Below are positions 13,146-35,895 of a stretch of 38,555 bases of DNA, piece after piece; the first letter of the stretch is position 1, and every line of letters begins with the position of its first letter. The notes under the pieces are model-generated. The model was not told where the DNA came from. It saw only the letters and a list, made by a program, of their open reading frames with translations, and did not search any database. The position numbers and the translations under genes were made by a program. Source of the DNA: Clostridia bacterium (lineage in GTDB: Bacteria; Bacillota; Clostridia; Oscillospirales; CAG-272); contig JAFXJW010000055.1 in NCBI GenBank assembly GCA_017532045.1, positions 1 to 38,555 of the forward strand. Direction: 5' to 3'.

Positions 13146-13177
13146 GGTTCCCTGCTCCTTTCGGATTAGAATAGTGA

Positions 13178-13389
13178 ATGCAGGGGCTTCACCCCTGCAC
13201 CCCACCTAAACCCTTTTTGCAAAACCTCCTCGCTTTGCTCGGGGCAAATTCGTCTGCGACGAAGTTTGCGAGGGTTTAGGAATCCCAAAAACCTTTAAAC
13301 AACAATGCTTTAAAAGGTTTTGGGGGTCAAGGCCCTTTTCTCAAAAGGGCTTTGCGGGGAGTGGGGCAGAGCCCCACAAACCCCAATTT
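13178..13389. repeat. Mosaic hairpin repeat, copy R2 (module order A-B(core)-C-D-E-terminal motif)
   Basis: Module A: GCAGGGGCTTCACCCCTGC at 13180-13198. Module B: arms CTAAACCCT (13206-13214) / AGGGTTTAG (13271-13279) around the 55-nt core. Module C: CCCAAAAACCTTTAAA...TTTAAAAGGTTTTGGGGG at 13284-13326. Module D: GCCCTTTTCTCAAAAGGGC at 13332-13350. Module E: GTGGGGCAGAGCCCCAC at 13361-13377. Terminal motif: AAACCCCAATTT at 13378-13389. Confidence 0.9.
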
Positions 13390-13400
13390 ATTTCCCCCAC

Positions 13401-13429
13401 ATTATATCATAAAACCCATGTTCTGTCAA
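13401..13429 (-). promoter_or_regulatory. Consensus SigA promoter upstream of repeat R2 and the GH13 gene
   Basis: Minus strand reads TTGACA (13429-13424), exactly 17 nt, TATAAT (13406-13401). The predicted TSS near 13394 places all of R2 in a leader of about 250 nt. Confidence 0.6.
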
Positions 13430-15934: not shown

Positions 15935-16023
15935 ATCGGTTATCACTTTCTTAGATTGGTTTCGATGGATATACATATTATTTGTTGGCAGGAGAAATTT
16001 TATGTGTAATGGGGGAGCATGTC

Positions 16024-16229
16024 GCAGGGGTTTCACCCCTGCACCCCACCTAAACCCTTTTTGAAAAAAGGGTTTAGGAATCCCAAAAACGTTTAACAAA
16101 TATATTTTTTAAAGGTTTTTGAGATTCCAAAGAACTTCGCAAACTTTGCCGCAGGCAAATTTGCCCCGAGCGAAGCGAGGAGGTTTGCCAAAAAGTTCTT
16201 TGGTGGGGGTGTGAGGGCAAAGCCCCCAC
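16024..16229. repeat. Mosaic hairpin repeat, copy R3 (A - empty B - C - filled B with inverted core - E)
   Basis: Module A: GCAGGGGTTTCACCCCTGC at 16024-16042. Empty B: perfect palindrome TAAACCCTTTTTGAAAAAAGGGTTTA at 16051-16076. Module C hairpin: 16082-16122. Filled B: arms CCAAAGAACT (16127-16136) / AGTTCTTTGG (16194-16203) around the core at 16137-16190. Module E: GTGAGGGCAAAGCCCCCAC at 16211-16229. Confidence 0.9.
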
Positions 16230-16230
16230 T

Positions 16231-16239
16231 ATTATAGCA
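16231..16239 (-). promoter_or_regulatory. Candidate extended -10 promoter (TGCTATAAT) that would drive glgP through repeat R3
   Basis: Minus strand reads GGTGCTATAATAG. The TATAAT at 16236-16231 overlaps the stop codon of the upstream ABC ATPase gene. The -35 is poor (CCGGAC). Confidence 0.35.
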
Positions 16240-18986: not shown

Positions 18987-19097
18987 TGAAGTAGTAAGGA
19001 GAAGAATTTATTGTACTCATATTCTCTCCGCCCCGTTCATACCTTCCCCTCCCCCCGCATAGGATATACCAATTATCCATATACGGAGGTCACGGGT

Positions 19098-19634
19098 ATG
19101 TTCATTTACTCCTTCAAAGCCAGCAGCATCAAGTTTTTTGGGATCCTTTGCGTTGCCTTAGCGGCGCTCATTGCCCTCATTGCCTTTGTGCCCGCTTATG
19201 CGGGCGAGCAGAATACGGGCGGCGGGAACAGCGGTGGGGTAGCAGTGGATGCCCCCGAGGCAGAATCCGGCGTGACGGTATCGGTGCGCTACGACAAGGT
19301 CACGACCGCCGACGATGCGGCGGGCTTCCTCTCCCAGTTCGGCTGGGTGGTGGATGCCGGATCGGTGGAGACCAAGGAGGTCACCATTCCCGCCCAGTTC
19401 GACAAGGTGTTCGCCGGCTACAACGAGATGCAGAAGTCTCAGGGACTGGATCTGTCCAAATACAAGAAAAAGGGCGTCACCCGCTACACCTTCACCGTCA
19501 CCAACTACAAGGGGTATGAGGGAGCCGTGTACGCCAACGTGCTGACCTACCGCGGCCGTGTCATCGGCGGGGACATCTGCTCGGCAGACGTGAGCGGCTT
19601 CATCCACGGGTTTGAAAAGCCTGCGGGGGAATGA
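19098..19634 (+). CDS. Hypothetical membrane-anchored protein, DUF4830-like
   Basis: ATG with a GGAGG RBS (19086-19090), an N-terminal TM anchor FFGILCVALAALIALIAFV, and a C-terminal domain (FLSQFGWVVD ... YNEMQKSQGLDLSKYKKKGVTRYTF ... GGDICSADVSGFIHGF) that resembles DUF4830 by recall. An alternative TTG start at 19011 also has an AAGGAG RBS. Confidence 0.55.
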   Translation: MFIYSFKASSIKFFGILCVALAALIALIAFVPAYAGEQNTGGGNSGGVAVDAPEAESGVTVSVRYDKVTTADDAAGFLSQFGWVVDAGSVETKEVTIPAQFDKVFAGYNEMQKSQGLDLSKYKKKGVTRYTFTVTNYKGYEGAVYANVLTYRGRVIGGDICSADVSGFIHGFEKPAGE

Positions 19635-19877
19635 AATTGGGGTTTGTGGGGGCTCTGCCCCCACCCCCCGCAAGGCCCTTTTGAAAAAAGTTCTTTGGAA
19701 TCTCCCAAAACTTTTGAAAACCATTGTAAAACAAGAATGTTTTAAAGGTTCTTGGGATTCTTAAACCCTCGCAAACTTTGCCGTAGGCGAATTTGCCCCG
19801 AGCAAAGCGAGGAGGTCTTGCAAGAAGGGTTTAAGTGGGGTGCAGGGGTGAAACCCCTGCCCGACAAACCCAAATTT
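19634..19877. repeat. Mosaic hairpin repeat, copy R4: full-length element with terminal inverted repeats (order E-C-B(core)-A, inverted relative to R2)
   Basis: Terminal inverted repeats: AAATTGGGGTTTGT (19634-19647) and ACAAACCCAAATTT (19864-19877). Module E: GTGGGGGCTCTGCCCCCAC at 19646-19664. Module B: arms CTTAAACCCT (19760-19769) / AGGGTTTAAG (19826-19835) around the core. Module A: GCAGGGGTGAAACCCCTGC at 19842-19860. Confidence 0.9.
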
Positions 19878-19907
19878 GAAACGATTATTCAGGATTGGAG
19901 AAAGAAA

Positions 19908-20324
19908 ATGACCGATAAGGCTACCCTTTACAAATCCCTCATGGAGGCCGCCTCGGCGGCCCGTCAATACGCCTACTCCCCCTACTCGGGCTACCGCGTA
20001 GGGGCGGCTCTGCTGGGAAAGAGCGGAAAGGTCTACACGGGATGTAACGTGGAGAACGCAGGCTACTCCCCCACCAACTGCGCCGAGCGCACCGCCGTCT
20101 TCAAGGCGGTCAGTGAGGGAGAGCGGGAGTTTTTCGCCATCGCCGTGACGGGCGGGGCGAGGGACTCTGTTGATTCTGCCTGTACTCCCTGCGGCGTGTG
20201 CCGCCAGGTTCTGGCCGAGTTCTGCGACCCTGCCACACCCGTCATTCTGGGCACGCCCGACCACCTGCGAGTACTGACCCTGGGAGAACTGCTTCCCTTT
20301 GCGTTCACGTCGGGTAACCTGTAA
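19908..20324 (+). CDS. cdd: Cytidine deaminase
   Basis: Zinc-binding motifs CAERTAVF and PCGVCRQ, 138 aa, GGAG RBS at 19897-19900. The first 52 codons of ORF 19752..20324 are read-through of repeat R4. Confidence 0.9.
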   Translation: MTDKATLYKSLMEAASAARQYAYSPYSGYRVGAALLGKSGKVYTGCNVENAGYSPTNCAERTAVFKAVSEGEREFFAIAVTGGARDSVDSACTPCGVCRQVLAEFCDPATPVILGTPDHLRVLTLGELLPFAFTSGNL

Positions 20325-24862: not shown

Positions 24863-25186
24863 TTCAAATTTGGGTTTATCGAGGAAGTCTCCCTGTACCC
24901 CGTTCCCCCAAGATGAAGGACGAAGCCCTTCATTAAGAGAAGTGGCCGGGGGTATTGGGGGCGGCCGTGAGCGCCCCAATGCGCGGCGGAAGCCGCAAGA
25001 AGGTTTTCGATAAACTTCCTTTTGTGGAAAAGAAAATTCCAGTTTTGACTCGTAAAGTTTCTTGCACCTGCCGGTGCGCGTCAGGGTGCTCAAGGCCGCC
25101 CCCGACACCCCAGGCCTCCTACTTTTTCTTTGCAGGGGCTTCGCCCCTGCACCCTGTTACAGAGGAAACCCAACTCCTCGATAAAC
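24863..25186. repeat. Variant mosaic hairpin repeat, copy R6 (about 320 bp)
   Basis: Terminal-motif copy TTCAAATTTGGGTTTAT at 24863-24879. Hairpins: ATGAAGG/CCTTCAT at 24913-24933; ATTGGGGGCG/CGCCCCAAT at 24954-24980; GCGGC-GGAA-GCCGC at 24983-24996; module A GCAGGGGCTTCGCCCCTGC at 25132-25150. The motif TCGATAAAC or its complement occurs at 24874-24882, 25007-25015 and 25178-25186. Confidence 0.75.
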
Positions 25187-25192
25187 TGCAAT

Positions 25193-26647
25193 TTACTCAC
25201 TCCAGCCCGTCAGGTTATCGCACTGATAGAACACCCGATCCCCCACGGTGGTGACGCCCTCGGCGGTGAGGGTGGCCAGGGAGAGGCAACCCGAGAAGCA
25301 AGAACTAGGGAGAGTGGTGACGTTTTTCGAAAGGGAAACGGTAGTGAGGGAAAGACAGCCCATGAAGGCCTGTATGCCCAGCACCGTCAGCCCTGCGCCG
25401 CTTCTGAAGGTCTGCATACGAATGCAGCCATGGAAGGCGTCATCCCCAATGGACACCACGCTATCGGGGAGGGTCATGGCCGTCAGCCGCTCACAGCCGT
25501 AGAAGGCGCGCCGACCGATGGTGGTCACACCCTGAGGGATGTGGATCTCTCGGATGGAGGAACACTCAAAGAATGCGTTGGCGGGAATGGCGGAACAGCC
25601 CTTGGAGAGCGTCACGGTGATGAGAGAGGCAGGGATATAGCCCGCCGTGAAGGTGTAGTGAGCCGCACCGAAGAGGTAGCCCAGATAGGCCGTTGCCTCG
25701 GCGGGATGCAGGGCATCCCCCTTCTCAATAGCCGCCTTTTGCTCCTCGGTAATCGGATGATCGTAGGTACAGCCTCCCACGAAGGGAATGGTGAGACTCT
25801 CCAGTCTGCCACAGCCCTCCAGCATACCCTCGCCCATGTATGCGACGGTGCTCGGGAGGGTCATATTCAAGAGGCGAATACAACTCGAAAAGGCGTGCTC
25901 GCCCAGAGTGGTCAGGGCGGTATCGGCGGTAGTGATATAGGCAAGGCCCTCACAGCCGTAAAAAGCGAAATCGCCGATCTCAACCGTCGTATCGGGCAGG
26001 GAGACGACCTCCAGTCCACGGCAGGCATAGAAGGCGTAATCGGGGATAACCGTCCCCTTGGTCAGAACGAGGGTGGAGAGGCTAACGGGCACGTAGCCGC
26101 CGCCCGCCTCGTGAGTGGTAGCGCCAAAGAGAGCGCCAAAGTAGGGTGCGCCCTCACAGGTGTAGACGGGGGTTTTCAGGGAGGTAAGATTCTTGCACCC
26201 CTCAAAGGCGGACTTGCCAACCGAGGTAACGGTATCGGGAACAGACACGGCCTTGAGGCCCGTCATGCCCTTAAAGGCGGAGTCGGCAATAGCGGTAACA
26301 GGCTTCCCCTCGATGGTATCGGGAATGACGAGAACAGACTCGCCTCCCTTGTAACCCAAAACGGTCACGCCATTCTCGTTATTCTCATAAGCGAAGTCGG
26401 GAGTACGGGCAGGCGCAGACGAAGCAAAGAGGGCCTCCAGCCGCTCGGCATAGTCGGAGACGTCCGTAAGCACACGGTCATCGGTCAGATCGGGGACGGT
26501 AACGGGAGGAAGGGTCACGACCTCCCCATCGGGAGACGTATCTCCGCCGTCGGAGTCGATCGAGCAGGCGACCATAGTCAGAAGCAGGGACACCGCCGTC
26601 AGAGCAGCCAGCATGCGGCCAAGGGTTGCGGACAAATATGTTTTCAT
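25193..26647 (-). CDS. Leucine-rich-repeat (BspA-like) surface lipoprotein
   Basis: Signal peptide with lipobox (LLLTMVAC). The body has many roughly 23-aa repeats of the form I-P-x-x-V-T-x-I-G-x-x-A-F-x-x-C-x-x-L. Confidence 0.8.
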   Translation of the reverse strand: MKTYLSATLGRMLAALTAVSLLLTMVACSIDSDGGDTSPDGEVVTLPPVTVPDLTDDRVLTDVSDYAERLEALFASSAPARTPDFAYENNENGVTVLGYKGGESVLVIPDTIEGKPVTAIADSAFKGMTGLKAVSVPDTVTSVGKSAFEGCKNLTSLKTPVYTCEGAPYFGALFGATTHEAGGGYVPVSLSTLVLTKGTVIPDYAFYACRGLEVVSLPDTTVEIGDFAFYGCEGLAYITTADTALTTLGEHAFSSCIRLLNMTLPSTVAYMGEGMLEGCGRLESLTIPFVGGCTYDHPITEEQKAAIEKGDALHPAEATAYLGYLFGAAHYTFTAGYIPASLITVTLSKGCSAIPANAFFECSSIREIHIPQGVTTIGRRAFYGCERLTAMTLPDSVVSIGDDAFHGCIRMQTFRSGAGLTVLGIQAFMGCLSLTTVSLSKNVTTLPSSCFSGCLSLATLTAEGVTTVGDRVFYQCDNLTGWSE

Positions 26648-33832: not shown

Positions 33833-34156
33833 TTATGGGGTGTCCTCCATAAAACAGAGGGTCGCGCCGTACCGCTCCAAGACCTCGGCGTAACCCTCGG
33901 TCTCCTTCATGCCCTCCTCCCACAGACTGCGGGGAAGAACCAGAACCACCCGTTTTCCCCGACCGCAGGAGGTGCGGCGAGCCTCGCAGAGCAGGATGTC
34001 CAGCTCCTCGGGAGGCAGGGAGCGGGTAACGACCACGGCCGTAGCCAGCTCACGGGGAGTGAGAAAAACCGCAAACAGGCCATGAAGAACACCGTAAAAG
34101 CCTATGACTGCCAAAGCAGCAATCGTGATCTGAAATAACGTCTCCCGAACATCCAT
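33833..34156 (-). CDS. Hypothetical small membrane-anchored protein (107 aa)
   Basis: ATG 34154-34156 with a GGGAGG RBS and one N-terminal TM helix (ITIAALAVIGFYGVLHGLFAVFL). Lies 33 nt upstream of recD2. No family recognised. Confidence 0.5.
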   Translation of the reverse strand: MDVRETLFQITIAALAVIGFYGVLHGLFAVFLTPRELATAVVVTRSLPPEELDILLCEARRTSCGRGKRVVLVLPRSLWEEGMKETEGYAEVLERYGATLCFMEDTP

Positions 34157-34220
34157 ATACCGACCTCCCAAAATGGTTTCGATAATCAGTATATGAAAGG
34201 GCGCAGGGAGGAGTGAGGGG

Positions 34221-34435
34221 TTCAAATTGGGGTTTATAGGGCCGAAGGCCCTCTCGCCCCCACTTAAACCCTTCTTGCAAGACCTCCTCGCTTTGCTCGG
34301 GGCAAATTCGCCTACGGCAAAGTTTGCGAGGGTTTAAGAATCCCAAGACCCTTCAAAAAACATTGATGAGCCAATAACAATTTGTTAAAGGTTTTTGGGG
34401 AGTCCAGAGGGGCTTTTTGCAAAAAGCCCCTTTGG
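34221..34435. repeat. Mosaic hairpin repeat, copy R7 (terminal motif - E - B(core) - C - D)
   Basis: Terminal motif: TTCAAATTGGGGTTTAT at 34221-34237. Module E: AGGGCC-GA-AGGCCCT at 34238-34252. Module B: arms CTTAAACCCT (34263-34272) / AGGGTTTAAG (34329-34338). Module D: AGGGGCTTTTTGCAAAAAGCCCCT at 34408-34431. The segment 34258-34347 is the exact reverse complement of 19751-19840. Confidence 0.9.
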
Positions 34436-34469
34436 CCGTTCTCCATATATATCCCTCGAAAGGCGCCAT

Positions 34470-35784: not shown

Positions 35785-35795
35785 TTCGTCTGACT

Positions 35796-35880
35796 CTCAT
35801 CAAGCAGGTATTGGCACCTTACCCCACGGGGCAGGTTGTCGTGACTTCACAGGGCCTGTCCCTCCGTCACTCTTGATAAG
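35796..35880 (-). promoter_or_regulatory. SAM-I (S-box) riboswitch aptamer
   Basis: Minus strand reads CTTATCAAGAGTGACGGAGGGACAGGCCCTGTGAAGTCACGACAACCTGCCCCGTGGGGTAAGGTGCCAATACCTGCTTGATGAG. This matches the S-box hallmarks: CTTATCAAGAG, GGAGGGA, GGCCC, GTGAAG, CAACC, GGTGCCAA and closure of P1. It lies upstream of metK, as is common in Firmicutes. Confidence 0.9.
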
Positions 35881-35895
35881 CGATTTACTTCTTTT

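Follow-up and report, generated by a model that had tools for sequence, protein, structure and literature searches.

The 244-bp repeat R4 (19634-19877), which occupies the spacer separating a DUF4830 gene from the cytidine deaminase gene cdd in the 38,555-nucleotide stretch analyzed here (the window), is a mobile, non-autonomous repeat of the MITE/REPIN kind. It probably belongs, as one copy, to a lineage-specific superfamily of foldback elements that are neither coding nor autonomous, a superfamily set apart by an end motif that bounds many cargos, by a polar and duplication-free insertion that rebuilds stop codons, and by having no partner enzyme found in the genomes inspected. The genome under study (G000) is a 1.68-Mb MAG of 176 contigs with 56% G+C and about 80% completeness, and the records related to it are assigned to uncultured Clostridia, Eubacteriales or Oscillospiraceae of gut origin, ruminants included.

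Shared ends and unrelated interiors

The 14-nt terminal inverted repeats that the preliminary description assigned to R4 are real and match at 13 of 14 positions (AAATTGGGGTTTGT at 19634-19647 against AAATTTGGGTTTGT, the reverse complement of 19864-19877); there is no indel between them as had been proposed, and the one difference, at position 6, is a substitution of G versus T. The contrast is systematic, as positions 6-9 agree between both ends in only 2 of 39 elements. Each member of the superfamily carries two unlike ends of ~18-21 nt in inverted orientation, a G-type (AAATTGGGGTTTRT...) and a T-type (AAATTTGGGTTTRTCGGG...), usually with a GC-rich hairpin next to each, and the interiors in between consist of exchangeable hairpin modules. 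The recurrence of the terminal motif at 13378-13389, 24863-24879 and 34221-34237, as reported earlier, was confirmed.

Allowing up to two substitutions, the terminal 14-mer was matched 241 times in G000 as compared with 11.7 times in shuffled sequence, and 47 of the 241 matches fall within R4-type loci. Altogether, the 1.68-Mb MAG holds about 190-240 copies of the end motif where about 12 would be expected. The conservation profile of 187 ends gave the consensus AAATTKGGGTTTRTCGGGGAG from +1 to about +21, with 1.3-2.2 bits at +1 to +18, ~0.6 bits at -3 to -1 (TTC) and background values beyond; since conservation is at background outside -3, the boundary of the element is sharp.

Complete elements bounded by these ends numbered 39 in G000, ranging from 41 to 514 bp with interiors unrelated to each other, among them GC-hairpin elements of 320-430 bp, long foldbacks of 510 bp, ATATCGA/GCGATAT hairpin arrays and AAATGC arrays. 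Clustering the interiors of 180 ends yielded 10 clusters with at least five members each. Of the traits that characterize a MITE, small non-coding size (244 bp in R4, 41-514 bp in the family) and sharp-edged terminal inverted repeats are both present, and the REPIN layout of two inverted end units around a hairpin-keeping spacer can be recognized in R4 from the copy alignment and the DNA fold.

A profile of the R4 type gave 199 hits in G000, distributed over 114 loci and covering 16.1 kb in total. Terminal 14-mers were not recognizable in 83 of these loci, one was found in 18 and two in 13, so R4 is among the minority of complete copies. Within the window, copy R2 (13162..13401, minus strand) has one terminal 14-mer (13376-13389) and is 94-96% alike over the whole element to a copy on another contig (C97:10120-10348), and copy R3 (16014..16233, plus strand) is related to R4 and lacks terminal 14-mers. 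R5 (24866..25194, plus strand, 329 bp) has the same ends as R4 around an unrelated interior, and its end provides the TT of the neighboring gene's stop codon.

Distribution among species and filled versus empty sites

The end 18-mer (at most one mismatch) was counted in 41 genomes with the reversed pattern as control, and the control gave 0 matches throughout. There were 147 copies in G000, 118-276 in each of eight congeners and 2-8 in each of six congeners; ten further congeners had 0, as had 16 other families within the order.

Comparison of orthologous spacers revealed filled and empty sites at R4, R3 and R5, the polymorphism being one between species only. The DUF4830-cdd spacer measures 274 bp in G000 and 34-64 bp, without the element, in seven congeners, while in G010 it measures 232 bp and is occupied by another, core-less variant that has the same ends. 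R3 is missing from the orthologous spacer of G005, G010 and G011, so that even this copy without terminal 14-mers is an insertion relative to congeners; R5 is missing from that of G005, G010, G011 and G017, and several elements of G018 are missing at orthologous sites of G011, G013 or G017. A difference of 1.75 kb between G013 and G018 proved to be a two-gene indel. The preliminary description had named the want of polymorphic sites and of consistent boundaries as what would reduce the ends to just another hairpin module; sites are polymorphic, and boundaries are sharp across copies with counts that run from 118-276 to 0 by species. As far as sequence comparison goes, this supports the view that the R4-type repeat is real and mobile.

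An empty allele within the species was found neither by exact-protein look-up nor by a metagenome scan, the best match of which had 85% amino-acid identity. Logan contigs from eight runs held no joint skipping the whole element and showed core skips of 46-52 nt only, which derive from other copies. The insertion points accordingly had to be deduced from flanks of only 75-90% identity.

The spacer after the DUF4830 gene has been colonized by unrelated small repeats. In a relative with 85% protein identity (L055, JAEIGA010056502.1) it holds a different insert of 138 bp with an inverted repeat of its own, CAATGCACAATG...CATTGTGCATT. In G018, some elements (L111, L107, L119) lie between a further inverted pair, TAGCCGATTGCA...TGCAATCGSCTA, which may represent a second, outer layer of the ends or else a hairpin targeted by the insertion; in G000, neither flanking palindromes nor insertions into flanking hairpins were found.

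Matches to IMG/VR viral contigs were discarded as chance matches in coding sequence or as a high-GC phage repeat. In two such phage contigs of 64-66% G+C (L158, L150), the 18-mer AAATTTGGGTTTGTCGGG recurs in spacers together with a GC hairpin, the copies standing ~4.3 kb apart and inverted on either side of lysis and terminase genes. So short a word probably recurs here by coincidence, though the layout of word plus hairpin is the same.

The elements also leave a mark on the assembly. In G000, 110 of 352 contig ends run into a terminal-repeat element within 600 bp, which accounts for much of the MAG's fragmentation and implies that the youngest, near-identical copies were not assembled. Assemblies of the relatives of G000 are probably fragmented by such elements too.

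Insertion polarity and the proposed rebuilding of stop codons

Target-site duplications at the boundaries, for which the earlier proposal of MITE-like behavior had called, did not emerge: among the 39 complete elements, duplications of three or more nucleotides occurred in 0 and of two nucleotides in 4, against 2.6 expected, although the AT at offset 4 and the AATT at offset 5, invariant at both ends, are not distinguishable from a duplication. At positions 6-9 the two ends of one element are anti-correlated, that is, less alike than random partners.

The flanks of the two end types differ. T-type ends (AAATTT..., n=107) have a TTC flank in 59 of 107 cases and a T stands before 57% of the G-type ends (AAATTG..., n=80), so the preferences hold for about 55-57% of ends only. 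Among the 37 G-type ends that face a gene 3' end within 150 nt, 24 complete a TAA stop codon from the flanking T and the AA of the element, and no reading frame extends deeper into an element. T-type ends complete a stop codon in 3 of 32 cases and more often face gene starts. In total, ~30 genes end at an element boundary.

R4 itself fits this pattern but for one extra G. The upstream DUF4830 gene (19011-19634, plus strand) stops with TGA at 19632-19634, and the last A of this codon is base 1 of R4, where the G-type terminal repeat, the end type that adjoins stop codons, begins (19634..19651, plus strand, AAATTGGGGTTTGTGGGG). The left flank reads ...ATG and not ...T. At the other side, the T-type terminal repeat (19860..19877, minus strand, AAATTTGGGTTTGTCGGG) is followed by GAA at 19878..19880 on the plus strand (TTC on the other strand), the preferred flank of T-type ends; the real start of cdd is the ATG at 19908. 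The joined flanks of R5 read ...AGT GAG TGA AG, and the empty orthologous sites of both R4 and R5 contain no AAATTT.

Collectively, these flank statistics point to the following mechanism, which we hold to be probable as a whole. An enzyme that recognizes the ends would move the element in trans and insert it in one orientation, free of duplication, at 5'-T^GAA-3' (TTC^A on the other strand). At a TGA-A stop serving as target, the codon would be split and rebuilt as TAA from the first A's of the element, or as TGA in the case of R4, and copies would mostly survive where the T^GAA word is such a stop or lies in a spacer. Oriented, duplication-free insertion is the habit of HUH/Y1 enzymes of the IS200/IS605 and RAYT kind, as known from IS608. 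The features that would mark such an enzyme (orientation, no duplication, unlike ends) are found statistically, not on exact empty alleles, and judged by the flanks the insertion fits the style of HUH/Y1 single-strand transposases (IS200/IS605 TnpA, RAYT) and not that of DDE enzymes.

It is unlikely, on balance, that R4 is a classical MITE, namely an internally deleted derivative of a DDE IS with a palindromic AT/AATT duplication hidden in AAATT...AATTT and a parent missing from fragmented MAGs. True inverted ends of 18-21 nt common to unrelated interiors are a hallmark of MITE superfamilies, the invariant AT and AATT at both ends cannot be separated from a duplication, and MAGs lose multicopy IS, with close to a third of the contig ends here (110/352) breaking inside the repeats. 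Nevertheless, such an origin is at odds with orthologous sites at R4 and R5 that are empty and without AAATTT, and with ends that are asymmetric and polar toward genes, which is unexpected for DDE elements with equivalent ends. In neither the nine repeat-rich genomes nor the low-copy genomes inspected was an IS of this sort seen, and the sole IS found between two ends is a nested IS30-family element with ends of its own. The MITE reading put forward in the preliminary description thus stands as regards the ends and the mobility, and falls short in that no target-site duplication and no autonomous parent were found and that the ends are systematically unlike.

Search for a parent element or driving enzyme

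A search of G000, of loci from nine repeat-rich species and of the inspected low-copy genomes detected no autonomous IS with these ends, the MAGs being incomplete. Larger end-to-end spacings proved to be host genes between two separate elements.

The IS30-family IS mentioned above lies between two ends at G017:C3:101-1427 (L095, IS at 150-1236), nested inside with its own ends. It is 1087 bp long, encodes a 320-aa HTH_38 + rve transposase and is 99.7% identical between G017 and G005 (L099, L104, L106). It was found in four places, each within a superfamily member, next to ...CCACCGCTKCGC and in both orientations, and it nests in several members at one inner palindrome. With ends of its own and nesting in both orientations, it was rejected as the parent and is considered a guest.

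IS200-type Y1_Tnp was likewise rejected as the driver; the copy in G000 (C149) is truncated, copy number shows no correlation, and none of the IS200-type Y1_Tnp/TnpA loci found carry these ends. Genes of the PF05635 four-helix-bundle family were set aside as well, with no ends within 1.5 kb and no tracking of copy number.

RAYT-like genes received particular attention. Four are present in low-GC islets of G000 (C87:4701-5372, C131:3312-3851, C3:34514-35047 and C46:2693-2914), two of them (C87 and C131) intact, one with an in-frame TAA and one a fragment, and their match to NF047646 reaches 62 bits, which is under the 80-bit cut-off. They carry a 22-nt palindrome of their own, GGACAGGCGTCCYCGACTGTCC, within and beside the coding sequence, with 26 copies in the genome and a variant that changes with the paralogue; the gene on C87 also shows a tandem 27-nt expansion (GQSGTPVTD x3). 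In G010, a 171-aa RAYT-like gene (L193, G010:C47, 642-1157) is preceded by a GTAG-headed REP doublet (487-597, GTAGGGGCGRCCCTATGTGGYCGCCCG), an arrangement seen in G005 and G017 as well. The RAYT-like genes on C87, C131, C3 and G010:C47 were rejected as drivers, having their own REPs and not the end motif. Among 25 congeners, the presence of RAYT-like genes does not track the copy number of the ends, and they occur in repeat-free congeners too.

A bolder version of the proposed mechanism can be conceived, in which the elements represent an undescribed transposition system of gut Clostridia that inserts in one orientation and free of duplication, docks at T^GAA, in very many cases within the stop codon, rebuilds the stop from its own first bases and carries at least ten unrelated hairpin cargos including heptamer arrays, the driver being neither a recognizable RAYT nor an IS-encoded transposase. 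We regard it as quite unlikely in this full form.

Internal modules and the 90-nt twin

Alignment of 13 long copies showed that R4 has a foldback layout with units mirrored around a central AT-rich hairpin. From left to right there follow the terminal 14-mer, the subterminal GC hairpin (19648..19662, plus strand, GGGGGCTCTGCCCCC), ACCCCNCC, a T-run/A-run palindrome (19671..19698, plus strand) and the central AT-rich hairpin (19697..19760, plus strand, GGAATCTCCCAAAAC...GTTCTTGGGATTC), after which the same units return inverted, including the right subterminal GC hairpin (19842..19860, plus strand, GCAGGGGTGAAACCCCTGC), and the other terminal 14-mer closes the element. By the same alignment of copies, which also defines this unit, the T-run/A-run palindrome is chimeric, with a left arm of GGCCC type and a right arm of GTTCTTT type. 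The right-hand palindrome (19760..19835, plus strand, CTTAAACCCT...AGGGTTTAAG) surrounds a conserved two-hairpin core of 46 nt (19770..19815, plus strand), of which G000 has 26 copies and which is missing from otherwise equal copies; the core-less junction 19769/19816 is also present in public gut metagenome contigs. Compensatory changes from copy to copy are seen in the stem of this palindrome, and the pairs TTTGCC/GGCAAA, TTCGCC/GGCGAA and TTCGTC/GACGAA occur in the core stem and the enclosing stem. Folded as single-stranded DNA, R4 reaches -56.4 kcal/mol (z = -5.8).

The exact inverted identity of 19751-19840 with 34258-34347 (90/90), noticed earlier, is correct. It extends to an exact run of 91 nt and to 98% over 101 nt, from 19740..19840 on the plus strand to 34258..34358 on the minus strand, the latter lying within a copy (34221-34466) whose other modules differ. 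In this 101-nt module the two are the closest of 325 core-bearing copy pairs, the next best pair sharing a longest common run of 61 nt. The earlier estimate that other copies differ by about 10-15% was too low, as they are less alike, with a median identity of 77% and a 90th percentile of 88%. Outside the module, R4 and the twin copy are 51% and 41% identical, and other near-identical module pairs have unrelated flanks as well; compared over whole elements, the closest pair of the assembled genome reaches 95.2% identity. Since the identity is confined to the inner 101-nt module, the twin does not represent a recent copy of all 244 bp. Of the two processes suggested before, recent mobilization of the whole element does not agree with such flanks, while gene conversion or module exchange does, and the comparison of the copies indicates an exchange of the inner module between them, be it by gene conversion or by module-level insertion.

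The peptide that opens both ORF 19752 (+) and ORF 34050..34346 (-), cited previously as independent support for the twin, belongs to a spurious TTG-started frame within the repeat, an artefact in R4 with no Pfam hit. Elements of this kind yield false ORFs and false 5' extensions (e.g. 19752-20324) and should be masked in annotation. Farther downstream, all covering public-run contigs (X1-X5, X13) have an extra C behind 20472, which would join both frames of the pyrimidine-nucleoside phosphorylase gene; the frameshift of the window at this point is hence suggestive of a misassembly or of a variant private to it.

Such modularity could also be accounted for by a repeat that is not transposable at all, in which the ends are a hairpin module of a REP/BIME-like mosaic that is kept for a host function (3'-end RNA stabilization, attenuation or protein binding) and that spreads and shrinks by recombination, slippage and gene conversion. 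Modular build, chimeric palindromes, patchy near-identity between copies, ends of one element that do not co-vary and the large share of R4-type loci without terminal 14-mers (83/114) all agree with it, as does the genomic context, for the loci always stand beside a gene 3' end and avoid divergent spacers. With gene positions taken from our own crude gene-calling script, 113 of the 114 loci are intergenic, and 86 lie between co-directional genes, 13 between convergent and 1 between divergent ones, where the baseline of divergent spacers is 11.5%. Yet recombination alone fails to account for hundreds of new, sharp insertions at unrelated sites that are empty in sister species, and it leaves the exact abutment to stop codons with the preferred TTC/T flank unexplained; moreover, R4 has no terminator-like site and the orientation of the core is random with respect to transcription. 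We find this account distinctly improbable and favor a mobile element whose copies exchange inner modules.

That the inner part of R4 (P1 stem and 46-nt core) could be a structured small RNA or cis-regulatory RNA whose identity is kept by selection is scarcely credible in spite of the compensatory changes in the core hairpin and enclosing stem and the strong fold, given that Rfam 15, searched up to E 10, returned no curated covariance model match in R4 and chance-level hits at E >= 0.16, that the 26 core copies are equally sense and antisense (11 and 10 relative to genes, which argues against a strand-specific RNA role), that the core is optional in otherwise equal copies, and that R4 has no promoter-like or terminator-like site. 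The sole Rfam match of the window at gathering score is a SAM-I riboswitch ahead of a metK-like gene (35794-35882, minus strand, 70.3 bits).

Relation to known systems and implications

No description of this repeat family was found in the literature. Among the closest parallels are the REPIN/RAYT systems of Pseudomonas and Enterobacteria (PMC3116915; REPINs are described in PMC3337134), which are also short and non-coding, with two inverted end units and a poorly conserved, hairpin-keeping spacer, and of which REPINs likewise occur in hundreds of extragenic copies with no target duplication (PMC3116915, PMC3337134). The lineage of G000 holds RAYT-like genes as well; unlike in REPIN/RAYT systems, these carry other REPs (GGACAGGCGTCCYCGACTGTCC or GTAG-headed) and not the end motif. 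The conserved end here differs from that of REPINs in being a 14-nt non-palindromic word plus a variable hairpin, and the interiors, up to 514 bp long, belong to many families.

With the IS200/IS605 family, for which IS608 and ISDra2 are the basis of comparison, and with its non-autonomous PATEs, the elements share oriented, duplication-free insertion by a short fixed target word, subterminal hairpins at both ends and unlike left and right ends. They differ in having true terminal inverted repeats, which those systems lack, and in that no gene for a Y1 TnpA turned up that carries the ends.

Correia elements of Neisseria and RUP of S. pneumoniae resemble them in small size, terminal inverted repeats, high copy number, intergenic location, copies that can overlap gene ends and presence/absence polymorphism. 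In Correia and RUP a TA is duplicated and a DDE parent is known or suspected, whereas the elements described here show no duplication, have polar ends and yielded no parent. A mosaic of a few hairpin modules in variable order and orientation, placed after genes, is likewise the build of E. coli BIMEs and pneumococcal BOX; the sequences are unrelated, and BIME and BOX families are not bounded by a terminal repeat common to unrelated interiors, in contrast to the present superfamily.

Overall, R4-type loci alone make up ~1% of the genome, ~190 element ends are scattered over 1.68 Mb, the assembly is broken by these elements at about a third of contig ends, and the stop codons of ~30 genes have been rewritten by them. 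The elements also set sister species apart within an uncultured lineage of the ruminant and human gut. Most descriptions of REPIN/RAYT-type systems come from Proteobacteria, and an end motif that combines many cargos with polarity, freedom from duplication and no partner enzyme offers a concrete way to test how small repeats are spread among Firmicutes.
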